NCBI GenBank assembly: GCA_963781805.1 | Contig: CAWAHF010000004.1 | Location: forward strand, 2,311,688-2,375,687 | Direction: 5' to 3' | Source of the DNA: an uncultured Bacteroidales bacterium | GTDB taxonomy: Bacteria > Bacteroidota > Bacteroidia > Bacteroidales > UBA10428 | DNA length: 64,000 nt | Shown: positions 3,092-61,862 of the stretch, in pieces | Numbering within the stretch: position 1 is the first letter of the stretch | Layout: each line of letters starts with the position of its first letter | Program-made: the position numbers and the translations under genes | Notes under the pieces: generated by a model | The model's input: the letters and a program-made list of their open reading frames with translations, nothing else | Database searches by the model: none | Told to the model about the DNA's origin: nothing

Positions 3092-6000
3092 ATGAAGAAG
3101 CTTTCCTTAACCTTCAAATCCGTTTTTTTCATTTGTATCCTATTAATATCCCTTACCGGTTGCCATAAAAAACCGAAAAACGATATCGTTTACAGTGAGG
3201 AAGTTGCGAAAATGATAAATTATGTGACTTCCGGCAACATTAGCAGTTACGATGAAATAAAAATTGAATTCAATGATCCGGTTGTTGAATCAGATGCGTT
3301 GAATAAACCCCTCAATAACAATATATTTTCTTTCAGACCTTCGATAAATGGTATTGCTGCCTGGACCAGCAGAAATACTCTCACATTCAGACCCGAAAAA
3401 GAGCTCCCGACACGAAAGGAGATTTTTGGAAAAGTAAATCTTGAGTTGTTGTCTGAAGATTTCAAATCGCGCAACCTGGGAAATATCGAATTCAGAATTT
3501 ATGTTACAGGTCGTGAAGTAAGTTCCTATAAAACTGATTTAATTCTTAAAGACAGAAACAATCCTAAAATATTACAATATACCGGAACAATTGAATTCTC
3601 TGAAAAGACAGATATTGAGCAGTTACAAACATCTGCTGAACTAAAACAAGGTTCAAAAGAATATACTCTCCATTGGAAAGAAACTGGTGATAATAAATCG
3701 TTTGAATTTTTAAGCGATGATATTGAACGGGAAGAAAAAACCAAAGATTTCACCTTTCGTATTAATAAGAACAAACTCGGTCTGTCAGAAGACTTTGAGA
3801 GGGAGTTTGAAGTTACTCCTTTGCAGGAAATGAAGATTACAAATATTGTGAAAGAAGAAGAAGGCAAAAGTCCCCGGCTTCGCATTGAATTCTCAGATGA
3901 GATTGATATCAGTCAGGATGTTTCAGGTTTTTTCTCCATTGAACCAAAAACAGAAACCAATGTAAGCAAGTTTGGCAGTTCGGTGGTAATAGACGGAGAT
4001 TTCAGGTACGGCGGTCAGTATTCGTTGACAATTGCCGAAGGTATAACGAGCCGTTGGGGAACCAAAACAAAGAAATCAGAAACCAAAACCATCAAATTCT
4101 CTGATCTCCCGCCGCAGATAGAATTTGTAAGTGACGGAATAATTCTTCCCACCTCAAATAACCAGAAGCTTCAGTTTTACAGCAGTAATGTCAGTCGTGT
4201 TCATCTTGAACTTAAGCGGGTGTATAACAATAATCTGAGAGAGTTTATGCGTAACGAGCAAATCAGCAGTCTTAAAAACCGGCATAACGAGTTTTCAGGT
4301 TCTTACACCAGCAACATTGGGGTGATTGTTCTAAACCAGACACTTGAAATTGGAGATGAAAAAAACAAATGGCTGCTGCATGAAATCGATCTGAAAAATA
4401 TTATCAAGGATGATCCGAACGGACTATACCTTGTACGATTGAATTTTAACCCAAGGGATATCCTTGTGGATGTAAAAGACGATGTATATAATTATATACA
4501 GGAACAGGGGCAGATCTATAAACCCATTATAATTTCTGATATTGGCCTAACCGTAAAAAACACCAAAAACGGTTATGTGGTCTTTGCTACCGACATTAAA
4601 TCGGCTCAGCCATTAGGTGGAGTCTATGTAGAGCTTTTTCCGTACTGGGATGATGAGGTTATCGCTTCTGGCACAACCAACAACAAAGGCATGGTTGAAC
4701 TTTCCAAAAGAAATTATTATTCTGCCGAGTATGTAATCGCTTCAAAAAACGGTCAGAGCAGCATCATGAAACTGGATGAGATGGAATGGAACACTTCCGG
4801 ATTCGATGTAAGTGGTGTGGAATCAACCGACGATGGTATTCGTGCCTATATCTATACCGAGAGAGGTGTATATCGTCCAGGAGATGAAATAAATCTTTCG
4901 GTGATTGCCCGAAATGAAAACAATACGTTTCCCGATCGGCATCCGGTTCAATTAAGACTTTTTAATCCCGAAGGCCAGATGATCTATGAAACCACAAATT
5001 CTGAAGGGAATGACGGTTTTTATTCTTTCAATCTGAAAACCCAGGAAAGCGCCCCTACAGGCAATTGGGAAGTAACTATCGATGTCGGAAGCAGAACATT
5101 CTATCATGTAATTAAAATTGAAACGGTTGTTCCATATAAACTTAAAGTAAATATTGAACCTGCTGCCGATAAAATAAAATGGAACGATCAATATCTTGAG
5201 TTTGATATCAACAGCAAATATCTTTTTGGAACACCTGCGGCAGGTCTCAGCGCCGAAGCCGAAGTTGAGATTCGTGAAATGGACAAGAAATTTCCCAAAT
5301 ACGAAGATTTTATTTTTAAAAATCAATTTGTTGATTTTCAATATATCAAAACCAGCATTTATAAGGGTAACCTGGATACAGCCGGAAAGGCGCATGTAAA
5401 ATGGTCATTGCCGGCATTTAATAATGTACCCTCAGCCTTACAAGCCAGATTATCGGTTTCTGTTCTTGAGAAAGGAGGAAGGCCGAATCAAAACTGGGCG
5501 ACCATCCCGATAGATCCTTATCAGTATTACGTGGGAATGAAACTTCCGGGCAAAGGATACTCCTATGTTAGAACAAATGAAGAACTAAGAATCCCTGTTA
5601 TCCTGCTCGATGGACAGGGAAATCCTGTACCGGATAAGAAACTTACTTACAGAATTTATAAAAATACTTCCTATTGGTGGTATCAATACCAGAGTAGAAA
5701 CAAGTTCAGGTTGAAATTTAAAACTGATCGTAGTACGGTTCTTGTAAAAGAAGGGAATCTGACTTCAAAAGATAAGGTCTTCTTTCTCACATTCAAACCG
5801 GATGAAAGAGGTGAATACCTAATCGAAGTTCAGGCAGGGGATTACAATGGACACAAAGCAGGTTTCTTCCTGAATGCATATCCATGGGGTTATATGCCGG
5901 AAGGAGATCAGGATGCCGGTACACTCTTGTTGAGATCAAATAAAAGTAAATATTATACGGGTGAGGAAGCCATCATTAATTTCCCTGCACCGGATAAAGG

Positions 6001-8554
6001 ATCCATTCTGCTCACCGTGGAAAGAGGGACTGAAATTCTGAGTTCGGATTGGATCCAACCCGAGATTGTGGATAATGAAGTGAATATACGCATTCCGATC
6101 ACAAAGGAAATGACTCCTACCTCTTACGTAACGGTATCTGTAATTCAACCACATAATCAGACAGTTAACGACCGGCCCATCAGGATGTTTGGAATATTAC
6201 CCCTGAATGTAGAGGATCCGGAGACTCGACAGAGTATCTCGATTGAAATGCCTGATGAACTCAAACCGGAACAACCCTTCGAAGTAAAGATTCATACCAT
6301 GGACAGAAAGCCCACTCAATTCACAATTGCAGTGGTTGACGAAGGTCTGCTTGATCTTACCTATTTCAGAACCCCGGATCCATGGAAAGAGTTTTTCAAG
6401 AAACTTCGGTTACAGGTACGAACGTTCGATTTGTTTTCACATATCATAGGGGCAAACAAAGGCGATGTGTTTAAAGTGTTTTCTGTAGGCGGTGATATGG
6501 ATTATCGCGAATCGCAGTTGCAACCCGAAAGAGGAAGACGCAGATTCAAACCGGTAAGCATGTTCCAGGGTCCGCTTATGACTGATAATAATGGCGATGC
6601 AGTTGTGAAATTTGATATGCCGAATTATGTGGGTTCAGTCCGTGTAATGGTGGTTGCGGCCAGAAAAAACACCTATGCAAGTGTGGATAAAACCGTGCCG
6701 GTGAAATCTGGTTTAATGATACAAACATCACTCCCAAGAGCATTGAAACCGGGTGATAAATTTGAATTACCGGTAACAGTGTTTGCCATGAAAGATAATA
6801 TCGGAAAGGTGGATGTTACTGTGACAACCGATGGTCCCGTTGCTGTTTCGGGAGCCAGGACTCAGACCATTTCCTTTTCCAAAAATGGTGAAAAGGACTG
6901 CAAATTTACGCTTAGTACAAAAATGGAGGTAGGCCAATCGAAGGTTATAATTAAGGCCAAATCAGCATCCTATACAGCCAAAGATGAAGCCGATATCATG
7001 ATAAGTCCGTCTTCACCCAGAATCTACGATGCTCAGGAAAAGATGTTAAATACAGGAGAATCAGTGACATTTCCGTTATCCGATAAGGGTATTAAAGGCA
7101 CAAACAGGGCAAGACTTACCTTAAATCTTTTCCCTAACATGGAGTTCAGTCATCGGTTGGAATGGTTAATTCATTATCCTTATGGCTGTATTGAGCAAAC
7201 CACATCTTCGGTATTCCCTCAACTTTATCTGAAAGAGATTATGGGAACTTCGGAAGATAAGCAAAAAGAAATTGACAAAAATATCAATGCAGGCATTGAC
7301 AGGTTAAAGAGATTCCAGGTTTCTTCCGGTGGGTTCAGTTATTGGCCGGGAGAATATGAAGCATCTCAGTGGGGTACCAACTATGCGGGACATTTCCTGA
7401 TTGAAGCAAAGAAAAAAGGCTATTATGTGCCGGATGGCATGTACAGTAATGTGATAAACTATTTGAAAAGGCAGGCCAAAAATCATCAGGGAAATGATAT
7501 GGAACGGATCAACCGTGCATATGTATTGGCAATTGGCGGTGAACCGGTAGTAAGCGAAATGAACCTGATCAAAGAAAATGAACTAAGCAAGTTGAACAAT
7601 ACACAAAAATGGATGCTGGCGGCTTCCTATAAAATGGCTGGTGTGAAAACCACAGCTGCAAGTTTGATAAAAAATGTGGATAAAAAGGCAGATGAGTACA
7701 GTGAGTTCGGAGGATGTTATGGTTCCACCTACCGCGATTATGCAATTATTTTATATACCTTGATTGTAATGGAAGATATGCAGGAGGCAGAGTTGCTGGC
7801 AAAAGAAATTGCTAAAAAACTAAGCTCAGATTACTGGTATTCAACCCAAACCGTTGGATATATGCTGCTTTCATTGGGTAAATATTTTGAAAGCGCTAAT
7901 ATTTCAGGATCAAGCAATCCCAACTTTGTCGGATATGTGACCTTGCCGGGTGGTAAGAAAGTGGAATTCGATATAAAAAATAAATATGAACTCGATATTA
8001 AGGAAGGATTCGGTCAGAATATTGAACTATTTCTGGACAGCAGATCCTCCGTTTCCAAAGCTTATGCAACGTTGTCGTGGGATGGCGTCCCGCTAACAGA
8101 TGAAACAAAGGATGAATCGAAAAATATTTCGGTGACCGTGGAATGGATGGGAGAAAATGGATCGAAGATCAATCCCGGACAATTGACGCAGGGGACGACC
8201 ATTTGGGGACATTTTACAGTAGAAAATCAGAGCAATGTCCCTAAGATCGAAGACGTGGCCCTGGTTCAGATTTTGCCTTCCGGTTGGGAAATAGAAAATA
8301 CAAGATTAAGTGAAGAAAATGTTCCTGCCTGGATGAGTGGATTGAATCTTAATCATGAGCAGTACCTGGATATCAGGGATGATCGTATTATGTGGTTTTT
8401 TGATCTCACCCAAAGCTCCTTCGACTTTGTAGTTAAGATAAACACTGTAACCAGCGGGGAATTTTATTTACCCCCTACCCTTGCCGAGGCAATGTATAAC
8501 AATGATTACAGGGCTACGCGAGCAGGAAAAAAGGTAGTGGTGAGTTCGAGATAA
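3092..8554 (+). CDS. Bacterial alpha-2-macroglobulin family lipoprotein with a thioester motif
   Basis: 1820 aa. N-terminal signal peptide with lipobox-like LTGC. Thioester site YPYGCIEQTTS (CxEQ). Length and architecture fit YfhM-type A2M. Confidence 0.9.
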   Translation: MKKLSLTFKSVFFICILLISLTGCHKKPKNDIVYSEEVAKMINYVTSGNISSYDEIKIEFNDPVVESDALNKPLNNNIFSFRPSINGIAAWTSRNTLTFRPEKELPTRKEIFGKVNLELLSEDFKSRNLGNIEFRIYVTGREVSSYKTDLILKDRNNPKILQYTGTIEFSEKTDIEQLQTSAELKQGSKEYTLHWKETGDNKSFEFLSDDIEREEKTKDFTFRINKNKLGLSEDFEREFEVTPLQEMKITNIVKEEEGKSPRLRIEFSDEIDISQDVSGFFSIEPKTETNVSKFGSSVVIDGDFRYGGQYSLTIAEGITSRWGTKTKKSETKTIKFSDLPPQIEFVSDGIILPTSNNQKLQFYSSNVSRVHLELKRVYNNNLREFMRNEQISSLKNRHNEFSGSYTSNIGVIVLNQTLEIGDEKNKWLLHEIDLKNIIKDDPNGLYLVRLNFNPRDILVDVKDDVYNYIQEQGQIYKPIIISDIGLTVKNTKNGYVVFATDIKSAQPLGGVYVELFPYWDDEVIASGTTNNKGMVELSKRNYYSAEYVIASKNGQSSIMKLDEMEWNTSGFDVSGVESTDDGIRAYIYTERGVYRPGDEINLSVIARNENNTFPDRHPVQLRLFNPEGQMIYETTNSEGNDGFYSFNLKTQESAPTGNWEVTIDVGSRTFYHVIKIETVVPYKLKVNIEPAADKIKWNDQYLEFDINSKYLFGTPAAGLSAEAEVEIREMDKKFPKYEDFIFKNQFVDFQYIKTSIYKGNLDTAGKAHVKWSLPAFNNVPSALQARLSVSVLEKGGRPNQNWATIPIDPYQYYVGMKLPGKGYSYVRTNEELRIPVILLDGQGNPVPDKKLTYRIYKNTSYWWYQYQSRNKFRLKFKTDRSTVLVKEGNLTSKDKVFFLTFKPDERGEYLIEVQAGDYNGHKAGFFLNAYPWGYMPEGDQDAGTLLLRSNKSKYYTGEEAIINFPAPDKGSILLTVERGTEILSSDWIQPEIVDNEVNIRIPITKEMTPTSYVTVSVIQPHNQTVNDRPIRMFGILPLNVEDPETRQSISIEMPDELKPEQPFEVKIHTMDRKPTQFTIAVVDEGLLDLTYFRTPDPWKEFFKKLRLQVRTFDLFSHIIGANKGDVFKVFSVGGDMDYRESQLQPERGRRRFKPVSMFQGPLMTDNNGDAVVKFDMPNYVGSVRVMVVAARKNTYASVDKTVPVKSGLMIQTSLPRALKPGDKFELPVTVFAMKDNIGKVDVTVTTDGPVAVSGARTQTISFSKNGEKDCKFTLSTKMEVGQSKVIIKAKSASYTAKDEADIMISPSSPRIYDAQEKMLNTGESVTFPLSDKGIKGTNRARLTLNLFPNMEFSHRLEWLIHYPYGCIEQTTSSVFPQLYLKEIMGTSEDKQKEIDKNINAGIDRLKRFQVSSGGFSYWPGEYEASQWGTNYAGHFLIEAKKKGYYVPDGMYSNVINYLKRQAKNHQGNDMERINRAYVLAIGGEPVVSEMNLIKENELSKLNNTQKWMLAASYKMAGVKTTAASLIKNVDKKADEYSEFGGCYGSTYRDYAIILYTLIVMEDMQEAELLAKEIAKKLSSDYWYSTQTVGYMLLSLGKYFESANISGSSNPNFVGYVTLPGGKKVEFDIKNKYELDIKEGFGQNIELFLDSRSSVSKAYATLSWDGVPLTDETKDESKNISVTVEWMGENGSKINPGQLTQGTTIWGHFTVENQSNVPKIEDVALVQILPSGWEIENTRLSEENVPAWMSGLNLNHEQYLDIRDDRIMWFFDLTQSSFDFVVKINTVTSGEFYLPPTLAEAMYNNDYRATRAGKKVVVSSR

Positions 8555-8658: not shown

Positions 8659-8767
8659 ATTCCTTCAAATATCTTTATTAATGAGTAATATTAATCGCAT
8701 ATTTTCATCATTTAAACCCATGCTTTTCCCCTCTTGAGAGGGGCCAGGGGTGTGATAAAAGACTATT

Positions 8768-9157
8768 ATGAAGAAAAAGCTAAATTTTGTCCCTTATAAT
8801 CCAAAGCTGAAAATATTAGCCCGCAACCTTCGGAATAATTCTACCAAAGCTGAAATTTTATTATGGCATTATTTAAAGGGAAAGCAAATAAAGGGTTATG
8901 ACTTTCACAGACAAAAACCAGTTGATAATTATATACTTGATTTCTTTTGTCCGAATTTAATGTTGGGAATTGAATTGGATGGGTATTCCCACAATTTCGA
9001 CGAAATAGTTGAAAAGGACATAAAAAAAGAATTAAAAATGAAAGAGTTGGGAATTGCCATCCTTAGGTTTGATGATAGTGAAGTAATGGATGATATGGAT
9101 AATGTATTGAAAGTGATTGAAGGATTTATTGATGAATATGAAAAGTCACACCCCTAA
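8768..9157 (+). CDS. DUF559 / Vsr-like PD-(D/E)xK endonuclease-domain protein, copy 1
   Basis: 129 aa. Pattern LWHYLKGKQIKGYDFHRQKPVDNYILDFFCPNLMLGIELDGYSH is typical of the DUF559 endonuclease-like fold. Confidence 0.8.
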   Translation: MKKKLNFVPYNPKLKILARNLRNNSTKAEILLWHYLKGKQIKGYDFHRQKPVDNYILDFFCPNLMLGIELDGYSHNFDEIVEKDIKKELKMKELGIAILRFDDSEVMDDMDNVLKVIEGFIDEYEKSHP

Positions 9158-9371
9158 CCCCTCTCAAGAGGGGAAGTGATAGCACTTAGATCAAATTTTA
9201 GGTTGAATGCTGAAAGTACAGTCATGGAATTTCAAATATCATGCTTAAATAATTTAAGTTTCAAGAATGTGATTTATATTCCTTATTTATACTTTAAGCA
9301 TAGCCAAAGATTTAGTCCTTAACTCTAAACTCCCCTCTTGAGAGGGGCCAGGGGTGTGATAAAAGACTATT

Positions 9372-9761
9372 ATGAAGAAAAAGCTAAATTTTGTCCCTTA
9401 TAATCCAAAGCTGAAAATATTAGCTCGCAACCTTCGGAATAATTCTACCAAAGCTGAAATTTTATTATGGCATTATTTAAAGGGAAAGCAAATAAAGGGT
9501 TATGACTTCCACAGGCAAAAACCAGTTGATAATTATATACTTGATTTCTTTTGTCCGAATTTAATGTTGGGAATTGAATTGGATGGGTATTCCCACAATT
9601 TCGACGAAATAGTTGAAAAGGACATGAAAAAAGAATTAAAAATGAAAAAGTTGGGAATTGCCATCCTTAGGTTTGATGATAGTGAAGTAATGGATGATAT
9701 GGATAATGTATTGAAAGTGATTGAAGGATTTATTGATGAATATGAAAAGTCACACCCCTAA
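9372..9761 (+). CDS. DUF559 / Vsr-like endonuclease-domain protein, copy 2
   Basis: Differs from copy 1 by I85M and E92K plus three silent changes. Confidence 0.8.
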   Translation: MKKKLNFVPYNPKLKILARNLRNNSTKAEILLWHYLKGKQIKGYDFHRQKPVDNYILDFFCPNLMLGIELDGYSHNFDEIVEKDMKKELKMKKLGIAILRFDDSEVMDDMDNVLKVIEGFIDEYEKSHP

Positions 9762-9975
9762 CCCCTCTCAAGAGGGGAAGTGATAGCACTTAGATCAAAT
9801 TTTAGGTTGAATGCTGAAAGTACAGTCATGGAATTTCAAATATCATGCTTAAATAATTTAAGTTTCAAGAATGTGATTTATATTCCTTATTTATACTTTA
9901 AGCATAGCCAAAGATTTAGTCCTTAACTCTAAACTCCCCTCTTGAGAGGGGCCAGGGGTGTGATAAAAGACTATT

Positions 9976-10365
9976 ATGAAGAAAAAGCTAAATTTTGTCC
10001 CTTATAATCCAAAGCTGAAAATATTAGCCCGCAACCTTCGGAATAATTCTACCAAAGCTGAAATTTTATTATGGCATTATTTAAAGGGAAAGCAAATAAA
10101 GGGTTATGACTTCCACAGACAAAAACCAGTTGATAATTATATACTTGATTTCTTTTGTCCGAATTTAATGTTGGGAATTGAATTGGATGGGTATTCCCAC
10201 AATTTCGACGAAATAGTTGAAAAGGACATGAAAAAAGAATTAAAAATGAAAGAGTTGGGAATTGCCATCCTTAGGTTTGATGATAGTGAAGTAATGGATG
10301 ATATGGATAATGTATTGAGAGTGATTGAAGGATTTATTGATGAATATGAAAAGTCACACCCCTAA
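9976..10365 (+). CDS. DUF559 / Vsr-like endonuclease-domain protein, copy 3
   Basis: Differs from copy 1 by I85M and K115R plus one silent change. Confidence 0.8.
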   Translation: MKKKLNFVPYNPKLKILARNLRNNSTKAEILLWHYLKGKQIKGYDFHRQKPVDNYILDFFCPNLMLGIELDGYSHNFDEIVEKDMKKELKMKELGIAILRFDDSEVMDDMDNVLRVIEGFIDEYEKSHP

Positions 10366-19425: not shown

Positions 19426-22400
19426 ATGGCAAAATCAAACAAATTTGGAGCATTCGGAGGTGTATTTACTCCTTCAATTCTCACCATTCTTGGTGTTATT
19501 ATGTACTTGCGTCTGCCAATGATTATAGGTGAAGCCGGATTGTATGCTACACTTGGGATAATTCTTGTAGCACATATTATATCTGTAACAACCGGATTGA
19601 GTGTTTCGTCAATTGCCACCGATAAAAAAGTACAGGCAGGCGGAACCTATTATATCATTTCAAGAAGCCTCGGATTACCCATAGGAGGTACGTTGGGCCT
19701 GGCTTTATTTGTAGGATTGTCGTTTAGTGTAAGCCTTTACCTGATAGGTTTCGCCGAAAGTTTTCTGAATTATTGGGGATTTGAGGTACCCCTGGACACC
19801 ATCAGGCTTGCCGGAAGCGCTATTCTGTTAATGGTCACGATTCTCACATTTATCAGCACTTCTTTGGCCTTGAAAACCCAGTATTTTATTATGGCCGCTA
19901 TTTTTCTTTCTTTGATTTCTATTTTTTTTGGGAAACATAATTTTGCACCATCAGGTGAAGTATTTTCAAGCGTCTCGTCTGCTCTTCCTTTAATGGTATT
20001 GTTTGGAATTTACTTCCCGGCTGTTACCGGGTTTGAAGCCGGAGTTTCCATGTCAGGCGATTTAAAAGATCCGAAAAGTTCCATTCCAAAAGGCACCATT
20101 TCAGCCATATTAATTGGACTGGTCGTCTATATAGGCTTAACATTTTTCTTATCAAAAACTGTCGATAGAAATGTCCTGGCAAACGATCCAAAGGTTTTGT
20201 TGAAAATAGCATGGATACCTCAACTTGTAATTGCAGGCATTTGGGGGGCAACTTTATCGTCGGCTCTTGGTAGTATTTTGGCTGCTCCGCGTATTTTACA
20301 GGCAACTGCCACTGATAAGATAACGCACAAATTTTTTTCAAAAGGTACAGGGGCAACTAATGAGCCACGAAACGCATTGTTGCTTACTTTCCTGATTGCC
20401 GAAGCTGGTATTCTGATTGGTGAACTTAATGTCATTGCCAGAATTGTATCTGTTTTCTTTATTACAACCTATGGATTTTTGAACCTGAGCTGTGCCATTG
20501 AAAGAATGACAAGCGCTGATTTCAGACCGGCTTTTAAAACTCCGGCATGGATAAGTCTGTTGGGTTCATTAGCCTGCATGATTGTTATGATACAGCTTGA
20601 TTTTATTGCCATGGTGGGAGCAACCCTTATCCTTGGCGCTGTTTATCTCTTTTTAAAGCGCAAAGAGCTCACCCTGCAAACAGGTGATGCATGGAGCAGC
20701 ATTTGGGCTTCGCTTGTTAAATCGGGGTTGAAGAAGCTTCGAACCCATACACTGCAATCGCGAAACTGGAGACCCAATATTATAATGTTTTCAGGTGAAG
20801 AGAAAATTCGCTCCTATATGATTGATCTGGGGAAAGATATTTCAGGCAGGCTGGGAATCCTTACAGGCTTCGAACTGGAAGAATCAGATGAAGAATTGTT
20901 GTTAAGAAAAAAGGATATTAAATTACCAGAATCAACCTCTTCAAGTTTTTTTATGAATCATTATACCTGCAAAGACATTTTTACAGGCATGGATGAGATA
21001 ATAAGAGTATATGGATTTAACGGAATAGATCCGAATACAATTCTTATGGGTTGGAGTACCAAAAAAAATAACAAACAGGCATTTATTCAACTTATTAAAA
21101 AACTTGAAAAGAACAACTTCAATTCAGTCTTTTTACATTATAATCCTGATAAAGGATTTGGAAATATGAAGACCATCGATGTATGGTGGAGTGGTTGGGG
21201 ACAAAATCTCACCTTTGCAATTAATTTAATCCGCCACCTTACGATGTCAGGTAACTGGAAGGATTCGGTGGTAAGACTGTTTATTGTCACTCATGATGTT
21301 ACCATCCTCGAAATAATCTACAAATCGGTGAGTAATATTCTTGAACAGTATAGGGTCGACATGGAAATCAAAGTTATAAATAACAGTATAAATAAATTTC
21401 AAAAAAATGATATTATTCAGAAGGAATCGGCCAATACTGACCTCACAATTATAGGTATTCCGGATAAAAAATACCAGGATATAGATAAAACCTATACAGA
21501 TGTTTGCGATCTTGTTTCAAACCTGGGTACAACACTGCTTATTAATGCTTCCAATACATTTGAAGAGTACGATTTGCTGCACGATGAAAAGACCACGCAA
21601 AAAAGTACTCCCTTAGAAGAAAATGAGTTGTCCTTGCCAACCCTCAAGTCTTCTGCATTCCTTCTCATCAATGAAGAAGTTCAGAAAATTGATCATACTG
21701 GCATTGAGATCTATAAATCATTCTATGAAAAAGCCATTGCTCCATTTTTCAGGGAAAATCTCGATGTAATTAATGAAGTGCAAAAACTTTATAATTTATC
21801 ATTCGCTGGTTTTAAAAAATTAGCCAAACTAAAAGACTCTTACCATAAACAAAAACAGTTATTCAATATTAGGAATGATATCCATTTTAAAACCAAAAAT
21901 CTTCTGGAAAACCTGGTGACAGAAAAACTTAAAATTCAGCAAGATTTGTTTACTTCAGGCATAGAATGGTATGTGAGTATGCTTGAGGATGAAATTGCCC
22001 GGTATCCCAAAAAATTGATTATTCCTTTTAACAAAGAAGATTTTAAAATTCAAAAATCAGATTCATTTGGTTTAAAATGGTTTAAAGTTAGAAAAAAGGT
22101 CATGCATCCTTTTTCAAAGACCACCATTAAAGAAAAAATCAGATATCGGGAAATTATACATTATTATTTCAGGGATAACAGGTTTCAATATGTTGACTCT
22201 TTTCTCAAGGATTTCAATCAAAGTAGTCTATTATTTATATCAGGAATTAAGGAGCTTCTCTTATCTATTGAAAATCAAATGGATTTGCTGTCCAAAAACA
22301 TATCTGATGAAGTTGATGAAAAGGACGCGGTTCATGAAATACTCAATATACTCCTGGAAAAAACGAATGAACTAAAGCAGGATATCGAAATAAATTCAAC

Positions 22401-24528
22401 ATTGTATCTTAATAGACTTCTGTCTGACTTTCGCAAGAATGAGCAACTTTTTAGTAACGACCTGGAAAAAATTAACTGTAACAGGTTGATATTAAGAAAA
22501 CGTAGAAAAAGTAAATATTACCGTTCGCTAAAGCTCAATTTATTTGATTTTTCAAAAGTCTGGTTTGAAAATACCTTTCATTATTCCAATAAGATATATC
22601 TCGATTTAGTTGTCTTATCCCTAAAAAACAGAATGACGGATGAAGCAACTGAATTTATTCTAAGATTAAAACAACAGGTTAATTCAGAACTTCTTAATAA
22701 AATCGGACAATTTTTATCAGAGATAAAAAAAATTCATGCAAAACCTGATGATTTCCACAAAATCAATCCTGAATTAAACATTGACAGCAGTTTTTTCAAA
22801 TTCGATGAGGATTTTCAAATTTTATCCGATGCAATAGATGAAATGACTGATGAATTGCCTGAAAACATTGATGTATCTGAAATACTCAATAATTCAAAAA
22901 AAATACAAAATGAAATTAGAACTACCATCGAAGTTCCTGTAAGACAAATGACTAAACATTTTATCAATTCAATTTTCCTTGGAGATGTTGAAGAATATCT
23001 TAAAAATTTGAATGAAACAATAAGGAAGATTGTATTTAAGACAAAAGACAACGTAAGTTACATGTATTTTGAACTTGAAAACCTTGAAGACGATACAGAG
23101 GATATAAAAAAGGAGATACAAAGGATACTGGATGAAACGAAGCAGGAAATTATCCCGGTAGAAAACAATGTGATTAATATGCATGATAAGATTGAAAATG
23201 ATATAATAAATTCTCTTAATAATGCCTTCGAACCACTGTCTTTTATTAAAATTTTAGATAGTAGTCGTGAACTTTCTCATTTCATTATGGAATATAAAGG
23301 TAAAAAAACACTCAACAGGGTTGAGTCATGGATAGATTCTATGAAGATTTCCTTGAGAAATAAAACCGTAAGACTTTTATATTCCAGAAGCGAAGGTGTT
23401 TTGTTTGCCAGGAAAATTACTGAACAGGAAGATCAGCATTCAATATCCGAGCAGATACTGGATTTTGTTACCAATTTAAGTCCGGATTCAACCATATATA
23501 ATCAGATACCGGTATACTATAAAAACCTGTTTAGCGGTCGATCAAGCATTAGCGAAGATTTTTGGATTGAACGGGCAGCAGAGGAAGAACAGTTTGATAA
23601 AGCTTATAATCACTATCTATCTGGCTATAAGGGAGGAATTATGGTACTGGGTGAAAGAAATTCAGGTAAAACTGCTTTTTGCAGACATATCACAAAGAAA
23701 TATCTCAATAGTAAAAAAGTATATCATATTTTCCCACCAATTTACGGATCTGTTAATCCTATAGATTTTGTTAAAATATTAAATGAAGTAACCGGTTTTG
23801 GCGGTAATGCATTGGAAGTTTTTGACAGACTATCAAATGATGTTGTAATGGTCATTCACGACCTTGAATTGTGGTGGGAGATGTCTGAGGCTGGTCTTGA
23901 AACCGTTCAATTGATACTGGACATCATAAAAAAATACAGTACAAAGTGTCTTTTTATTATCAATATGAACCAGTTTACTTATAAAAGAATCAATACAGTG
24001 TTTGCACTTGAAGATAATTTTGTTGGTATAATTTTTTGCAGACCTTTTGACTCTGAAGATTTGAAAGATCTCATCATGCGCAGACATAAATCAAGCGGGA
24101 TGAAAATCCATCTGGGTAAAATAACCGAAGAGCAATTATCAGAAATTCGAATGGCCGGACTTTTTAATAAATATTTTAATTTTTCCGGTGGTAATCCGGG
24201 ATTATCCTTATTTACATGGGTAGCACAAATTAAAAAAATATCCAATGAAAATTTTTATATCGAACCTCCGGAAGTGCCTAATATGAATATTTTTGAGAAT
24301 CTGAATGAAGACTGGAAGGTTGTTCTCACGCAACTTATCTATCATAAGAGAATGGATATAAACAAGCTGAAGAATGTTTTACAAATCGATGAAGCCGAAA
24401 TTGAAAAAATTATCACCTCATTATTAATGACAGGACTTATTAAGGAGAAGTCAAAAGGATTGTATACAATTAACAGATATGTGGACAGATTTCTTACAGA
24501 ATACTTTCATGAACATGAACTTATTTAA
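19426..24528 (+). CDS. Fusion protein: APC-superfamily cation-chloride-cotransporter-like permease, ~650-aa helical region, then P-loop NTPase with winged-helix tail
   Basis: Uninterrupted 1700-aa ORF. Residues 1 to ~455 carry 12 TM helices with SLC12-like motifs. An SLC12-type cytoplasmic domain begins at NWRPNIIMFSG. Walker A GERNSGKT is at 23650-23673 (aa 1409-1416). Walker B-like VVMVIHDLE has its Asp at 23860. The C-terminal wHTH-like stretch reads LQIDEAEIEKIITSLLMTGLIKE. Confidence 0.8.
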   Translation: MAKSNKFGAFGGVFTPSILTILGVIMYLRLPMIIGEAGLYATLGIILVAHIISVTTGLSVSSIATDKKVQAGGTYYIISRSLGLPIGGTLGLALFVGLSFSVSLYLIGFAESFLNYWGFEVPLDTIRLAGSAILLMVTILTFISTSLALKTQYFIMAAIFLSLISIFFGKHNFAPSGEVFSSVSSALPLMVLFGIYFPAVTGFEAGVSMSGDLKDPKSSIPKGTISAILIGLVVYIGLTFFLSKTVDRNVLANDPKVLLKIAWIPQLVIAGIWGATLSSALGSILAAPRILQATATDKITHKFFSKGTGATNEPRNALLLTFLIAEAGILIGELNVIARIVSVFFITTYGFLNLSCAIERMTSADFRPAFKTPAWISLLGSLACMIVMIQLDFIAMVGATLILGAVYLFLKRKELTLQTGDAWSSIWASLVKSGLKKLRTHTLQSRNWRPNIIMFSGEEKIRSYMIDLGKDISGRLGILTGFELEESDEELLLRKKDIKLPESTSSSFFMNHYTCKDIFTGMDEIIRVYGFNGIDPNTILMGWSTKKNNKQAFIQLIKKLEKNNFNSVFLHYNPDKGFGNMKTIDVWWSGWGQNLTFAINLIRHLTMSGNWKDSVVRLFIVTHDVTILEIIYKSVSNILEQYRVDMEIKVINNSINKFQKNDIIQKESANTDLTIIGIPDKKYQDIDKTYTDVCDLVSNLGTTLLINASNTFEEYDLLHDEKTTQKSTPLEENELSLPTLKSSAFLLINEEVQKIDHTGIEIYKSFYEKAIAPFFRENLDVINEVQKLYNLSFAGFKKLAKLKDSYHKQKQLFNIRNDIHFKTKNLLENLVTEKLKIQQDLFTSGIEWYVSMLEDEIARYPKKLIIPFNKEDFKIQKSDSFGLKWFKVRKKVMHPFSKTTIKEKIRYREIIHYYFRDNRFQYVDSFLKDFNQSSLLFISGIKELLLSIENQMDLLSKNISDEVDEKDAVHEILNILLEKTNELKQDIEINSTLYLNRLLSDFRKNEQLFSNDLEKINCNRLILRKRRKSKYYRSLKLNLFDFSKVWFENTFHYSNKIYLDLVVLSLKNRMTDEATEFILRLKQQVNSELLNKIGQFLSEIKKIHAKPDDFHKINPELNIDSSFFKFDEDFQILSDAIDEMTDELPENIDVSEILNNSKKIQNEIRTTIEVPVRQMTKHFINSIFLGDVEEYLKNLNETIRKIVFKTKDNVSYMYFELENLEDDTEDIKKEIQRILDETKQEIIPVENNVINMHDKIENDIINSLNNAFEPLSFIKILDSSRELSHFIMEYKGKKTLNRVESWIDSMKISLRNKTVRLLYSRSEGVLFARKITEQEDQHSISEQILDFVTNLSPDSTIYNQIPVYYKNLFSGRSSISEDFWIERAAEEEQFDKAYNHYLSGYKGGIMVLGERNSGKTAFCRHITKKYLNSKKVYHIFPPIYGSVNPIDFVKILNEVTGFGGNALEVFDRLSNDVVMVIHDLELWWEMSEAGLETVQLILDIIKKYSTKCLFIINMNQFTYKRINTVFALEDNFVGIIFCRPFDSEDLKDLIMRRHKSSGMKIHLGKITEEQLSEIRMAGLFNKYFNFSGGNPGLSLFTWVAQIKKISNENFYIEPPEVPNMNIFENLNEDWKVVLTQLIYHKRMDINKLKNVLQIDEAEIEKIITSLLMTGLIKEKSKGLYTINRYVDRFLTEYFHEHELI

Positions 24529-24540
24529 TTTTCTTAAGCA

Positions 24541-25236
24541 ATGAAAATAATATTTGTATTATTCATTATCTTATTGACGTTTATTGGAATGAGAATTATA
24601 CAGCTTATTGCAAGGCAATTAATAAAAAAATATGCTGTACTGAGAAAACTTTTAAACCTTATACCTCTGGTTGGATTGATAATATGGCTCATTATTCTGT
24701 TTTGGGCAGTAAATTATTTATTTCAGGATAAATCTTATTACCTGGTGATAATCGTAAGCATTATTGTAATCCTAAGCCTGACTATCGGTTGGTTTTTACT
24801 GAAAGATATTATTGCTGGAATTATTTTCAGAATTCAAAACAATTATTCGCAGGGTGAGTTTGTGCAGTTTGGAAAATTATCCGGCCGCTTGAACGAAATG
24901 CATTTAACGCATATTTCTATTCATACCAAAGACGGTAAAAGCATAAAAATTCCTTACTCAAGACTAAGCAATGAAATAATTTCTCTGAGATTAGAAACAA
25001 AATCATTTGAGAGTGACAGGTTTATAATAAATGTCAACAAAAAGTATCCTAAGAAAGAAACAGAAGATATTATTTTTGCTCTACTTAACAACTCTCCCTG
25101 GCGAGTTGGCAATGCTGTGCCTCAGGTAAAGTTTTTAAATGAGGATACAGATGGTTTTTCATTTGAAATACTGGTTCAGGTAAGAAATCAAAAACATCTT
25201 AACAACATTAAAGAAAGCCTGATAAAAAGATTCTAG
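24541..25236 (+). CDS. Small MscS-family mechanosensitive channel-like protein
   Basis: 231 aa with 3 TM helices, then KDIIAGIIFRIQNNYSQGEFVQFGKLSGRLNEMHLTHISIHTKDGKSIKIPYSRL (MscS beta-domain pattern). Starts 12 nt after the fusion gene stop. Confidence 0.7.
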   Translation: MKIIFVLFIILLTFIGMRIIQLIARQLIKKYAVLRKLLNLIPLVGLIIWLIILFWAVNYLFQDKSYYLVIIVSIIVILSLTIGWFLLKDIIAGIIFRIQNNYSQGEFVQFGKLSGRLNEMHLTHISIHTKDGKSIKIPYSRLSNEIISLRLETKSFESDRFIINVNKKYPKKETEDIIFALLNNSPWRVGNAVPQVKFLNEDTDGFSFEILVQVRNQKHLNNIKESLIKRF

Positions 25237-57934: not shown

Positions 57935-59443
57935 TTATTTATGCCCAAAAAAATTACGATATACAATTTTTAGATGATGCTTTATCATGTTTATAAAATT
58001 AAAAATACCAGTGTATTTGATAAATATCTGGGCATACTTTTCAAAACTTGGATTAACTGGAACGCAAAGGGTTTCTTTCCATAAATATTTTAAGATTCTG
58101 CGATGTAATAAGCAATCGTCTCTATTTCTGTATTTTCTTTTTGTAGATAAAAGAGTTATCATTAGTTGCCGGGAATTCAAAGGTAATATTTCTTCCTGTG
58201 CAATGTCTTTATTACTCGGATAATGAGTACCCCATATTGTCATTCGGTTTTCCCAATAATGCAAGTCAAGTATATTAATATTATATTTATTACATAAATC
58301 TTCTACTTCATTTATCCATTCGTTGCTTTTATATAAAGAATATTTAAAGTTTCCAATCCAAGTTAAATTAACCAAATCTAAACCTGTGATTTTTGATCTG
58401 TAGAAATCCCATGCATTCCTTCCTACCTCAGAGAAATTACCTGGTAAATTAATATAATCGGGGTATAATTTAAAATAGGTATTAATAAGAGGTAATCGGT
58501 TTTCATAAGGATAAAAAGTATTTTTAAGATAAATTTCTCTAAATTTCTCATCAATATCTTGATCCGCCGTTAATATATGAAATTTCAACCCTAAGGATTC
58601 CACTACTTTTTTGCCAATCCTAATATCAAGATGATTGGTTTTCATCTTGGGTAGTTTATATATATAATAAAACACATCTTGACTAATATTTCTGGATGCT
58701 GCGAGAAGAAATCGGGAATCCATTCCTGCCGTTATTGGGAGCATTAATTTTTTATATCTGTGATAAAGGGCTTTCATAAATCCTGTAACAAGATCTCCGG
58801 ATTTTTTAACCACCTCGTCGATTGGCATAATATTAATTCGTTCATTAGGCCAGAATCTAACTCTCTTTTTTAGATTAAAATCAAGATAATGATTGGGAGA
58901 CAACTGATATATTTCATCATATATTGTGTAATGATAAATTCCTGCAAATTCTTTTTTAATAAAATAATCTGATTCAAAATAGGCTAACTTATCCTTATCG
59001 GTGCTTTTGGCAATATTTAACAGGTTAGCTAATACATGTGGTTGTGAACCGCACCATATTTGGTCAGAAAATTCTGTATAATAAATTTTTCTTGCTGTTG
59101 CCGGATCATTAAATATCTGAATAATTTCACCCTCAACAAAAATAAAAACATAACGACCCGTATAAATATTAGTTTTTAAAAGTAATTCTTTGAAACTATA
59201 TGTAATTAAACTGTTAATTACATCGTTGTTAGTATATGTCGGATTATAGGGATCAAAAATATCTCCAAGCAGATATAATGAAATTTTATTTGAATTTCTA
59301 AATGAAAAATTCAAATCCTGATGATAATATAAATTATAAATGTTGTTTAATTGTACGTGATTGAAAAGACCTTCAATTTGCACAGAGGTCGGGGTTAAAT
59401 AAAATTGTCTGCGGTAAATTAATCTATTGTAGTCTTCAGCCAT
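57935..59443 (-). CDS. Uncharacterised enzyme, paralogue 1: asparagine-synthetase-like N-domain without Cys2, plus a variant PP-loop (TAGMDSR)
   Basis: 502 aa. GRYVFIFVEGEIIQIFNDPATARKIYY resembles the AsnB N-domain G.F....d.....l...RD..G..PLYY. LMLPITAGMDSRFLLAA resembles SGGxDS. The functional call is motif-level only. Confidence 0.5.
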   Translation of the reverse strand: MAEDYNRLIYRRQFYLTPTSVQIEGLFNHVQLNNIYNLYYHQDLNFSFRNSNKISLYLLGDIFDPYNPTYTNNDVINSLITYSFKELLLKTNIYTGRYVFIFVEGEIIQIFNDPATARKIYYTEFSDQIWCGSQPHVLANLLNIAKSTDKDKLAYFESDYFIKKEFAGIYHYTIYDEIYQLSPNHYLDFNLKKRVRFWPNERINIMPIDEVVKKSGDLVTGFMKALYHRYKKLMLPITAGMDSRFLLAASRNISQDVFYYIYKLPKMKTNHLDIRIGKKVVESLGLKFHILTADQDIDEKFREIYLKNTFYPYENRLPLINTYFKLYPDYINLPGNFSEVGRNAWDFYRSKITGLDLVNLTWIGNFKYSLYKSNEWINEVEDLCNKYNINILDLHYWENRMTIWGTHYPSNKDIAQEEILPLNSRQLMITLLSTKRKYRNRDDCLLHRRILKYLWKETLCVPVNPSFEKYAQIFIKYTGIFNFINMIKHHLKIVYRNFFGHK

Positions 59444-59672
59444 TCTAAATAAAACTAATTCAAACTAAATTAACGTTTGAGTATATTAATATGAGTTTAT
59501 TCAATTTATACTCCAATTATGAAAATTAAGTTATAATAAATTTCACTAATGGGTACTAAAAATTAATATTCGTTCTTTGAAACTCTTTGTTTATCGCACT
59601 TATTGTGTTTATTATATGCGTGACGATTTGAATTGAAAAGTTGGATTTTTGCTTTGAACTAAGCATTTATCC

Positions 59673-60052
59673 ATGAATCAAGGCAAATATATTTTCGCAC
59701 AGCTTACAGATTTTTTACCGCGTAGAACCTTTGACCGAATAGTGAAAAATCATGATGGAAATAAATACGTCAGAACCTTCACTTGTTGGAACCAGATGCT
59801 CTGTATGGTTTTTGGCCAGCTCACTTCAAGAGAAAGTATGCGTGATTTATGTTGAGTCTTGAAGCTCACCAACCTAAATACTATCACCTTGTATTTGGTC
59901 AAACCATAACACGAAGGAATCTTGGCAAAGCCAATGAAAAGCTCAGTAATAAAATCTCTGAAGAGTTTACTTATGTCCTTATTGAGGCAGCCCGAAAGAG
60001 CTGTTATAAAACCGATTTTGAAGTTGAGATTGACGACATTGTTTATGTGTAA
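59673..60052 (+). mobile_element. IS4-family (DUF4372 N-terminus) transposase remnant, frameshifted and 3'-truncated
   Basis: MNQGKYIFAQLTDFLPRRTFDRIVKNHDGNKYVRTFTCWNQMLCMVFGQLTSRESMRDL is the typical N-terminus. A frame change near 59845 continues SLEAHQPKYYHLVFGQ...RNLGKANEK. The ORF ends after ~125 aa, with no DDE domain. Confidence 0.8.
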
Positions 60053-60253
60053 ATCGTCCATTTTTGGATTTGCTTCAAGAATCACTATTTACGTATAAAG
60101 ACTTTTTCACCAAATCCTAGAAAGAAAAAAGGGTCAGTATTCCTGGTTTACTTGTGCTTTTCACTCGAACCGATAAAAGAATTTAAAATGTATTAGCTTT
60201 TTATTATCTAATTCTTATGAAATATACTTTTTCCTAAGTTTATTCTTTTCTTT

Positions 60254-61744
60254 TTAACGCCTCAAAACATTCAATTTATCCTTTATCATAAGAAAAAAAT
60301 GATACATCCCTGAATATTTGATAATTTTTATATAAAATTTTTTGAAACTTGGATTAACAGGAACATCAAGGGTTTCTTTCCATAAATTCTTAATTATTTT
60401 ACGATGCAAAAATCCAATATCTTTATCTCTGTATTTTCTTTTTGTAGATAATAAAATTGTCATCAATTGCCTTGAGTTGAAAGGCAAAAATTCTTCCTGA
60501 GCTATATCCTTATTGGATTGGTAATGTGTTCCCCAGATTGACATTCGATTCTCCCAATAATATAAGTCAAGAATGTGTACATTGAATTTATGGCAAATAT
60601 CACCCACCTCATTTATCCACTGATCACATTTATCTATAACAAATTGAAAATTCCCACCTTGTGACAATCGGATTAAAGTCTTTCCATCAATTTTGGATTT
60701 GTAAAAATCCCAAAAGTTTCTTGCTACTTCAGCAAAATTACCGGGTAAATTAACATAATCAGGATATTTCTTATAGTATATGTCGTAAATGAGAGGTAAT
60801 CTACACTCATAGGGATAAATAGTGTTTTTAAGGTAAATTTCTTTAAATTTTTCATCAATTTCTTCATGTGCAGTTAAAACATGAAATTTTAATCCCAGTG
60901 AATTAATTAATTTCTGACCGATAATTATATCAACATCCATATTTTCAGTTGATCCCATTCTATTAATATAATAGAAGACTTCCTGGCTGATTTCCTTAGT
61001 TGCAGCCAGCAATAATCTGGAGTCCATCCCTGCAGTTACAGGAAGCATTAATTTATTATATCTGCAATAAATTGCTTTTATGCAGCCTTTAATGTTTTCA
61101 CTAGCTGTATTAATCACTGTATCAACAGGTAATTTTTGTAGTTCGCATCTCGGCCAAAACCTTACCTTCTTTTTCTGATTAAAGTCCAAATAATGATTTG
61201 GAGGTAACTGAAATATTTCATCCCAAATGGTATGATCCAGAAACCCGGAATATTCATTCTTTAGAAAATGTTCAGAATTAAAATACAACAATTTCTTTTT
61301 ATCATTACTCTTAGATATATTTAATAGTTCAGCAATTACATGTGGTTGTGATCCGCACCATATTCCATATGCTGATACGGTATAAAAAACCTTTCTGGCA
61401 GTAGCTGCATCATTAAATATTAGCATATTATCTTTGTTAATATAAATGATTATATACCGGCCTGAATATTTATCACTTCGAACCAGCAAGTCATTAAAAT
61501 TCTCTTTTATAAGTATTTTGATTATATCCTCATTTGAATAAGAAGGATTATATGGATCAAATATATCTCCTAAAATACACAACGAATTTTTTTCGGATTC
61601 AAGAAAAGTAAAATTCAGATCAATATGATAATACAAGTTATACCGATCATTTAACCAAACATGATTGAAAATTCCTTCGATTGTTATTGATTTTGGAGTC
61701 AGATAAAACTGCCTTCGATAAACCAAATTCCTATAATCCTCCAT
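60254..61744 (-). CDS. Uncharacterised enzyme, paralogue 2 (AsnB-like N-domain plus variant PP-loop TAGMDSR)
   Basis: 496 aa, roughly 60 percent identical by eye to the 57935-59443 product across its full length. Confidence 0.5.
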   Translation of the reverse strand: MEDYRNLVYRRQFYLTPKSITIEGIFNHVWLNDRYNLYYHIDLNFTFLESEKNSLCILGDIFDPYNPSYSNEDIIKILIKENFNDLLVRSDKYSGRYIIIYINKDNMLIFNDAATARKVFYTVSAYGIWCGSQPHVIAELLNISKSNDKKKLLYFNSEHFLKNEYSGFLDHTIWDEIFQLPPNHYLDFNQKKKVRFWPRCELQKLPVDTVINTASENIKGCIKAIYCRYNKLMLPVTAGMDSRLLLAATKEISQEVFYYINRMGSTENMDVDIIIGQKLINSLGLKFHVLTAHEEIDEKFKEIYLKNTIYPYECRLPLIYDIYYKKYPDYVNLPGNFAEVARNFWDFYKSKIDGKTLIRLSQGGNFQFVIDKCDQWINEVGDICHKFNVHILDLYYWENRMSIWGTHYQSNKDIAQEEFLPFNSRQLMTILLSTKRKYRDKDIGFLHRKIIKNLWKETLDVPVNPSFKKFYIKIIKYSGMYHFFLMIKDKLNVLRR

Positions 61745-61862
61745 AATGTTTGAAAATTAAATTATGAGCAAATAAAATTTTATACAATCTTTTTATACTA
61801 GATTTTATCAGGCATTGGTATATTCTATATATTATCAGAAATATAAAAAAATAGAAGAAATA

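Follow-up and report, generated by a model that had tools for sequence, protein, structure and literature searches.

O-antigens, capsules and biofilm polysaccharides commonly carry uronamides or amino-acid amides of uronic acids, which influence serotype, phage adsorption and immune recognition. To our knowledge, few enzymes that install amide-linked decorations on surface sugars have been described, and the phage serotype-conversion mechanisms we know of are dominated by membrane glucosyl- and acetyltransferases: Gtr and Oac are both membrane proteins, acting with lipid-linked or acetyl donors. Beta-lactam synthetase (BLS) and carbapenam synthetase (CarA) are homologues of the asparagine synthetase AsnB that have no glutaminase activity, and in which an amine of the substrate attacks the acyl-adenylate. 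The AsnB-type enzymes WbpS, WbqG and PGN_1234 make uronamides in O-antigen and A-lipopolysaccharide sugars, using glutamine (PMC7468200). Here we analyse two paralogous genes, A and B, in a 64,000-nucleotide stretch of DNA (the window) from an uncultured Bacteroidales bacterium (contig CAWAHF010000004.1, positions 2,311,688 to 2,375,687). A note made from the sequence alone (the original prediction) had described their products as AsnB-like enzymes with a variant PP-loop. We find that they belong to a large family with the AsnB fold whose genes often lie in surface-glycan clusters and, in enterobacterial prophages, beside tailspike genes. We lean, with modest confidence, towards a cytoplasmic enzyme that would depend on ATP but not on glutamine and would modify a surface glycan by amide formation.

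The two minus-strand open reading frames (ORFs; Table 1) lie exactly where the original prediction had placed them, and its by-eye estimate of roughly 60% identity agrees with BLASTP (61% identity and 79% positives over 495 residues, one gap). Both products are predicted to be soluble, with no transmembrane segment and no signal-like N-terminus. Sequence searches said little about their fold: no Pfam family, PF00733 and PF13537 included, matched A or B, and single-sequence and profile hidden Markov model searches against PDB sequences gave chance-level matches only, so that a fold search was needed. An AlphaFold2 model built on a 59-sequence alignment reached a pLDDT of 95.2 and a pTM of 0.93. 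When this model was compared with PDB by Foldseek, full-length matches were found solely to the AsnB group (E 5e-14 to 1e-8, probability 1.00): BLS (1m1z, 5e-14), CarA (1q15), TsnB9 (7ylz), E. coli AsnB (1ct9) and human ASNS (6gq3). These matches had a TM-score of about 0.55 over some 500–550 aligned columns at a sequence identity of about 10–14%, and single-domain N-terminal nucleophile (Ntn) amidotransferases and PP-loop enzymes ranked far behind. Consistent with the Foldseek result, hhalign aligned the family with a two-sequence AsnB profile end to end (463 columns, probability 85%, E 6e-6). Thus, as modelled, A and B have the AsnB-superfamily architecture, an N-terminal Ntn-type four-layer sandwich followed by a C-terminal PP-loop ATP pyrophosphatase domain.

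The hhalign alignment paired several family motifs with AsnB motifs. L-L-G-(D)-I of the family fell on V-N74-G75-E76-I of AsnB, D113-x4-R-x-x-Y-Y on R-D98-x-x-G-x-x-P-L-Y, T-A-G-M-D-S on the PP-loop S-G-G-L-D-S, L-P-G-N-F-S-E on L-S-G-E-G-S-D-E, and D-I-A-Q-E-E-x-x-P-[FL]-N-S-R on G-V-E-A-R-V-P-F-L-D. In the N-terminal part, where the alignment is of low confidence, AsnB Arg49 (H-E-R49-L) stands opposite H-P-D-L and Asn74 opposite Leu. The original prediction had noticed the conserved C-terminal block and called it unassignable; the block is indeed present, but its alignment with the GVEARVPFLD region makes it part of the synthetase domain.

Conservation was assessed across 59 diverse members, 23–66% identical to A. 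T238, G240, R244, E398, D113, G60, G96, Q13, P183, N184 and R196 are invariant, D242 is present in 57 members and replaced by Glu in the other two, and position 243 is Ser or Thr in all 59. The variant PP-loop thus reads T-[A/S]-G-x-D-[S/T]-R, invariant or nearly so, and because the PP-loop and the acidic residues are so strictly conserved, the putative nucleotide site is indicated to be functional. Not one of the 59 members has the Cys2 glutaminase nucleophile; the N-terminus is instead lengthened by 12 residues, the last three being an invariant R-R-Q. The missing nucleophile and a variant PP-loop, both read by eye in A and B, are thus common to the members compared.

Family models did not claim the two proteins. 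Against NCBIfam, A and B matched TIGR01536 (asn_synth_AEB, glutamine-hydrolysing asparagine synthetase) below threshold (23.9 and 21.3 bits, cut-off 267.1) and the macrolactam cyclase model NF033561 weakly (E 9e-6, 24.6 bits, cut-off 300), and TIGR03108 (eps_aminotran_1) was not listed for either even at E <= 10. They fall outside TIGR01536, TIGR03108 and NF033561, do not qualify as BLS or CarA, and by sequence form a distinct, un-modelled branch; the Pfam and NCBIfam copies used hold no model for it. A word-indexed search returned 118 clusters of about 500 amino acids (aa), from Bacteroidales, Anaerolineales, Smithellaceae, a Hodarchaeota metagenome-assembled genome (MAG), Dokdonia, E. coli and Enterobacter. 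Almost all named clusters were called 'hypothetical protein', as is the gene in complete E. coli genomes in RefSeq, and none had a Pfam domain. An exhaustive profile search found at least 2,359 clusters (50% identity) at E <= 1e-30 and 4,362 at E <= 1e-10. In literature searches we found no paper describing this AsnB-like family. One member (P0178) is fused to a glycosyltransferase family 2 (GT2) domain, and other members are fused to a methyltransferase, a PAS domain or a 2H phosphoesterase (P0245).

In which genomic settings do the homologues occur? The closest homologue outside the source genome (P0002, 67% identity) directly follows genes for an RmlA-like protein and a PIG-L deacetylase, in a cluster with an MBOAT gene, two ALGX genes, RmlB- and RmlC-like genes and a methyltransferase gene, and further on UDP-glucose dehydrogenase, epimerase and GT2 genes. 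An Anaerolineales member lies between GT1 and GT2 genes in a Wzm/Wzt/Wzy cluster, another member has Wzz, Poly_export, Bac_transf and WecG as neighbours, and a third stands between Wzy/GT2 and GT1/GT2. The Smithellaceae member sits between a polysaccharide deacetylase and Wzx, in a cluster that also holds MBOAT, a carrier protein and an adenylating enzyme, and in Dokdonia ponticola the order is ABC ATPase, methyltransferase, the AsnB-like gene, GT2, GT2, FdtA, GT2, GT1, Wzx, DegT. Deacetylase genes (PIG-L and Polysacc_deac_1) lie directly upstream in two loci, and others are nearby (in L019; YdjC in L013).

A bulk Pfam scan of three genes per side in 30 further loci from species-representative genomes gave Por_Secre_tail 13 times, fn3 10, Polysacc_lyase_14 (PL14) 9, MBOAT, GT2, GT1 and GFO_IDH_MocA 5 each, and Bac_transf, Wzy_C and Epimerase_2 2 each. 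Seed searches for glycan gene classes within 10 kb were then summarised over 36 non-redundant loci: at least one class was present at 25 of the 36, in raw counts taken without a matched genomic background control. MBOAT genes were found at 12 loci, PL14-domain proteins at 9 and UDP-glucose dehydrogenase at 1; core assembly genes were present at 19, a lower bound. The substrate, left open by the original prediction, is narrowed by the settings in other genomes to a probable surface glycan.

Two further features recur in these neighbourhoods. At about a quarter of the loci the AsnB-like gene has, as flanking neighbours, one or two very large proteins that unite Polysacc_lyase_14, fn3, Laminin_G_3 and a C-terminal sorting domain for type IX secretion (T9SS), often on both sides (L017 8095-15065, L019, L022, L029, L031 and L038, from Bacteroidales and Anaerolineales MAGs); they could act in polymer processing, or be T9SS cargo that a modified sugar anchors. 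At L020 (1894-2883), L024 (8823-9857) and L027 (8961-9941), the gene for a conserved protein of about 330 aa that Pfam does not match separates the MBOAT and AsnB-like genes, and the three genes look like an operon. Outside the window, no neighbour of the family is met more often than MBOAT, and the recurrent MBOAT and Acyl_transf_3 neighbours may simply mark heavily decorated polymers.

The enterobacterial members, about 26% identical to A (E 1e-34 to 1e-35), are located in prophages. In P22-like prophages of E. coli, the order is integrase, the AsnB-like gene and a convergent tailspike gene with a Head_binding N-domain. An Enterobacter hormaechei prophage of different architecture, with a tape-measure protein and a Tail_spike_N adaptor, has integrase, S24 peptidase, the AsnB-like gene and tailspike. 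Between the two, the AsnB-like proteins are 84% identical and the tailspike bodies 86% identical over 725 residues, while the N-terminal adaptors differ (Tail_spike_N versus Head_binding). At the DNA level the two prophage loci resemble each other in a single uninterrupted 3.7-kb block (83% identity; L002 9914-13632, L049 5293-9010) and nowhere else; this block runs from about 87 nucleotides upstream of the gene to the junction of tailspike adaptor and body. Since the prophages share only this block, the gene and the glycan-recognising tailspike body travel together. We read this co-transfer as the pattern expected of a receptor-modifying conversion gene paired with its tailspike. The epsilon34 genome paper places the gtrABC conversion genes of this phage group (20-22) immediately behind the tailspike gene (19) and expects their expression from the prophage (PMC2629481).

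Decayed prophages retain the gene as well. In E. coli strain DAM it lies in a degraded prophage, with an IS1 between it and an Acyl_transf_3 gene and, on its other side, a truncated tailspike that matches residues 186-842 of the intact protein at 96% identity. Acyl_transf_3 is a Pfam family that we take to be that of Oac-type O-antigen acetyltransferases. In other E. coli strains only the AsnB-like gene survives, between dacD and sbcB amid insertion sequence (IS) debris; in several such chromosomes (loci L011 and L047) it is the sole intact prophage survivor, followed by IS3, IS911, IS150 and IS30 fragments and a group II intron. This suggests that the gene is retained after prophage decay. 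A tblastn search with the E. coli homologue gave no match in the deposited phage collection and only distant ones (24–26% identity) in four plasmids.

What reaction might these proteins catalyse? By analogy with AsnB, BLS and the lasso cyclases, the variant PP-loop (T-A-G-x-D-S-R) would bind ATP and a carboxylate would be adenylated, with attack of an amine on the acyl-AMP then yielding an amide. Because the Ntn domain lacks the catalytic Cys, the nitrogen would not come from glutamine hydrolysis; it would have to be supplied by free ammonia or by a co-substrate that bears an amine. The former glutamine pocket is remodelled and probably helps to bind the substrate. From genomic context the substrate is most likely a surface-polysaccharide precursor, such as a nucleotide- or lipid-linked sugar with a carboxyl group (a uronic acid, for example) or a de-N-acetylated amino sugar, and the outcome would be a decorated O-antigen, capsule or exopolysaccharide carrying, for instance, a uronamide or an amino-acid amide. 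Two versions both fit the context: (i) a uronamide or amino-acid amide may be formed on a uronic acid, and neighbours with PL14 lyase domains or resembling WbpB favour a uronic-acid polymer; or (ii) a sugar amine freed by the adjacent deacetylase may be N-acylated, with an outcome analogous to the VimE/VimA steps. More tentatively, and with the chances somewhat against the full picture, the family could be an unrecognised class of surface-glycan amide ligase that joins ammonia, an amino acid or an amine to a sugar carboxylate or acylates a sugar amine. Temperate phages would have taken it up as a one-gene serotype-conversion factor travelling with the cognate tailspike, and in Bacteroidota its repeated duplication would diversify polysaccharides, possibly together with MBOAT proteins.

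Several observations weigh against a glycan amide-forming enzyme. The alignment has a gap at the loop carrying AsnB Lys449, and in A and B Ala takes the place of the second PP-loop Gly, so that the presumed catalytic competence is argued from conservation. With UDP-glucose dehydrogenase at a single locus, the uronic-acid idea rests mainly on the PL14 and WbpB-like neighbours. Bacteroidota genomes are rich in glycan loci, against which the raw neighbour counts have to be read, and 11 of the 36 loci (L012, L021 and L028 among them) have no glycan genes within 10 kb. The window genes themselves and their counterpart in a syntenic relative lie between rnf and peptidase genes with no glycan genes nearby, and the E. 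coli members are distant from the window proteins, at the identity of about 26% given above.

How do other explanations fare on the same evidence? That the proteins modify a peptide or small molecule, as a lasso-type macrolactam cyclase, a BLS- or CarA-type intramolecular cyclase, or an enzyme forming the C-terminal amide or nitrile of a ribosomally synthesised and post-translationally modified peptide (RiPP) acting in secondary metabolism, is suggested by the best structural matches being BLS and CarA, by the weak match to NF033561 (albusnodin/ikarugamycin-family macrolactam cyclase), and by a Cys nucleophile being absent here as in those enzymes. We consider it very improbable, given that the NF033561 score is far under its cut-off, that the intergenic gaps hold no credible precursor ORF (at L005 the preceding gene ends just 30 nucleotides before the homologue), and that across about 40 neighbourhoods we saw no PqqD or RiPP recognition element (RRE), transglutaminase-type protease, leader peptidase, RiPP-type transporter, non-ribosomal peptide synthetase, polyketide synthase or other secondary-metabolite gene. 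With neither precursor nor partner genes, the lasso/RiPP assignment was rejected. Little credence, too, goes to a prophage or island factor for defence or superinfection exclusion, whose PP-loop would act on nucleic acid or nucleotides in the manner of QueC or of 7-deazaguanine modification and for which the glycan context would be coincidental. The position next to an integrase in prophages, the low GC content of the window genes and their adjacent IS, the fusions to a 2H phosphoesterase and a PAS domain, and the presence of the PP-loop nucleic-acid modifiers TtuA and QueC among distant Foldseek matches all speak for such a role. We down-weighted it on the PADLOC-DB result, which was no match for A, B or the Enterobacter homologue and a chance-level 11-bit match only for the E. 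coli homologue. Moreover, over their whole length the proteins resemble the AsnB group with its two domains and not the single-domain PP-loop enzymes that act on nucleic acid, the settings outside phages are mostly glycan clusters, and the co-transferred partner is a glycan-binding tailspike body.

A role in central or envelope metabolism, through ammonia-dependent amidation of a peptidoglycan or lipid precursor (as by AsnB1/LtsA-type enzymes) or of a free metabolite, or else as a catalytically dead scaffold, would suit the conserved position between housekeeping genes in the window and its relative, the loci without glycan genes nearby, the non-canonical PP-loop and the Lys449 loop that could not be aligned. 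It is nonetheless unlikely in our judgement: the family is patchily distributed and has duplicated repeatedly and independently, and its mobility with phage tailspikes and its embedding in strain-variable glycan clusters are typical of accessory surface-decoration genes. Strict conservation of the PP-loop and acidic residues argues against a dead scaffold in particular. The glycan amide-forming enzyme thus remains the reading we favour.

The original prediction had seen the locus as AT-rich and as fitting an acquired islet. The composition is as described: with GC contents of 0.290 and 0.297 against a gene mean of 0.374 (standard deviation 0.041), A and B are the two lowest of the 44 genes called in the window, and their GC at third codon positions is 0.241 and 0.264 against 0.346. 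This AT-richness is real but modest (z of about -2), and the intergenic gaps at the locus have 17–26% GC. A different fold, a TAGMDS segment not conserved among homologues and a typical composition were each looked for, and none was found. The islet interpretation holds at best for B and the IS fragment. A related metagenomic genome has a single copy (P0004) in the same slot and the same gene order as the window: pepD, the AsnB-like gene, rnfA-E-G-D-C-B, DUF3108, AI-2E transporter, ..., TsaD, TamB. Flanking orthologues of the two genomes are 50–80% identical, and A and B are 60.6% and 53.8% identical to P0004; the intergenic DNA on the rnfA side could not be aligned with the relative. In trees, A groups with P0002, P0003 and P0004, all from other genomes, and B branches just outside. 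Because the slot has a counterpart, the divergence of A is within the orthologue range and A groups with these homologues, A is probably a vertically inherited resident of the pepD-rnfA junction and no recent islet. As judged from the trees, the split between A and B is older than the divergence of A from P0002, P0003 and P0004. B and the IS4 fragment either go back to an old tandem duplication, with loss in the relative, or were inserted later; neither direct nor inverted repeats were found to bound the B-plus-IS segment. The P0004 gene too lies below its surroundings in GC (0.353 versus 0.388 locally), and low GC is therefore a long-standing property of the gene.

Pairs of family genes are present at three other loci. 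The two genes adjoin in L014/L015 (47% identity) and L020 (66%), and in L037 (39%) a distance of 5.5 kb separates them. The members of each pair fall together in a clade of their own, and the duplications were thus independent. Since similar pairs arose repeatedly elsewhere, A and B, as old and diverged paralogues, probably differ in specificity.

Between the paralogues, the original prediction had seen a dead IS4 transposase. Two short plus-strand frames lie there, of which the first matches DUF4372 (E 5e-26). Joined, they cover only positions 1-94 of the 332 of NF033592 (NCBIfam, IS4 family transposase); because the DDE domain is missing, the element is a dead fragment, and no convincing inverted repeats flank it. 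The flanks are also as first described, with rnfB-C-D-G-E-A upstream (rnfA matching PF02508) and an M20 dipeptidase gene (pepD) downstream. The absence of a precursor-peptide, protease or glycosyltransferase gene accompanying the paralogues was borne out in the window, including a scan of the four intergenic gaps at the locus, which gave merely short, low-complexity, AT-rich frames with no credible starts. A search upstream of A and B for TAnnTTTG, the Bacteroidetes -7 motif, gave no match, and around the locus there was no Rfam family, no tRNA and no excess of terminators or sigma-70 promoters.

Table 1. Features of the paralogue locus and other features of the window (positions are those of the window).
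Feature	Position	Strand	Size or residues	Basis or remark
Paralogue A, predicted AsnB-superfamily two-domain enzyme	57935..59443	-	502 aa	ORF, AlphaFold2, Foldseek, hhalign
Paralogue A, putative ATP-pyrophosphatase/synthetase domain	57938-58828	-	residues ~206-502	
Paralogue A, conserved C-terminal block WENRM..WG....NKDIAQEE..P.NSR	58169..58255	-		includes invariant E398; second half aligned to AsnB GVEARVPFLD
Paralogue A, variant PP-loop TAGMDSR	58712..58732	-	residues 238-244	aligned with AsnB SGGLDS
Paralogue A, predicted degenerate Ntn domain	58829-59443	-	residues ~1-205	
Upstream region of A	59444..59672	-		24% GC; no credible small ORF, no recognised promoter motif
IS4-family transposase gene remnant	59673..60052	+	~126 of ~330-400 aa left	DUF4372 N-terminal domain, then second frame
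First frame of the IS4 remnant	59673-59855	+		
Second frame of the IS4 remnant	59849-60052	+		
Paralogue B	60254..61744	-	496 aa	ORF, BLASTP against A, trees
Paralogue B, variant PP-loop TAGMDSR	61016..61036	-	residues 237-243	
Upstream region of B	61745..61862	-		17% GC; between B and the M20 peptidase stop codon
MBOAT-family acyltransferase	306-1964	+	552 aa	
Bacterial alpha-2-macroglobulin	3092-8554	+	1,820 aa	
Three head-to-tail units	8727-10365	+	604 bp each	99% identity
DUF559 ORFs, one in each unit	8768-9157, 9372-9761, 9976-10365	+	129 aa each	Vsr-like endonuclease fold
Permease ORF	19426-24528	+	1,700 aa	PF00324 in first ~430 residues
Mechanosensitive-channel-domain protein	24541-25236			follows the permease ORF

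Other features of the window deserve brief mention. The MBOAT-family acyltransferase gene lies 56 kb from the paralogues, and no linkage is implied; the alpha-2-macroglobulin gene is likewise far to the left. The DUF559 units, with a GC of about 0.31–0.32, below the window mean, represent a very recent triplication of a small nuclease-like gene. The amino-acid permease ORF continues for about 1,270 residues almost without a Pfam match, save a weak one to the SLC12 C-terminus, an extension that is unusually long for a bacterial transporter.

For the window itself the meaning is modest, namely that a conserved junction of the chromosome holds two accessory genes. For the family, the glycan clusters and the enterobacterial tailspike linkage make it a concrete candidate for installing amide-linked decorations and, if this is true, a soluble ATP-dependent enzyme would be added to the mechanisms of phage serotype conversion.

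Among described systems, WbpS, WbqG and PGN_1234 (TIGR03108) agree with the family in superfamily fold, an N-domain of Ntn type being joined to a PP-loop synthetase domain, and would share the expected reaction, adenylation of a sugar carboxylate followed by amide formation. Unlike them, the family lacks a TIGR03108 match and Cys2 and has TAGxDSR for SGGxDS; their surface-glycan cluster setting recurs at many homologous loci (25 of 36), but neither for the window genes nor for the syntenic relative. BLS (1JGT/1M1Z) and CarA (1Q15) are the best structural matches over both domains (E ~1e-13, TM-score ~0.55), but identity is only 11–14%, the loop with the catalytic Lys (BLS K443, AsnB K449) could not be aligned, and the neighbourhoods are glycan clusters with no clavam or carbapenem context. 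E. coli AsnB (1CT9, TIGR01536) shares the G-x-x-S-[ED] and E-x-x-x-P-F motifs and has a PP-loop with which the family's variant aligns, whereas in the family Cys1 is absent, the N-terminus is extended by 12 residues and the score is 23.9 against a cut-off of 267. Lasso-peptide cyclases (NF033561-like) are AsnB-like and Cys-less, form an amide via an acyl-adenylate and give a weak profile match, but the neighbourhoods examined for the family hold no precursor peptide, leader peptidase or RRE partner. GtrABC of P22 and epsilon34 and Oac of Sf6, finally, have no relation in sequence or fold to the AsnB-like protein, which is soluble and expected to use ATP; yet in P22-like prophages its gene takes the same position as theirs, directly next to the tailspike gene and not far from the integrase.

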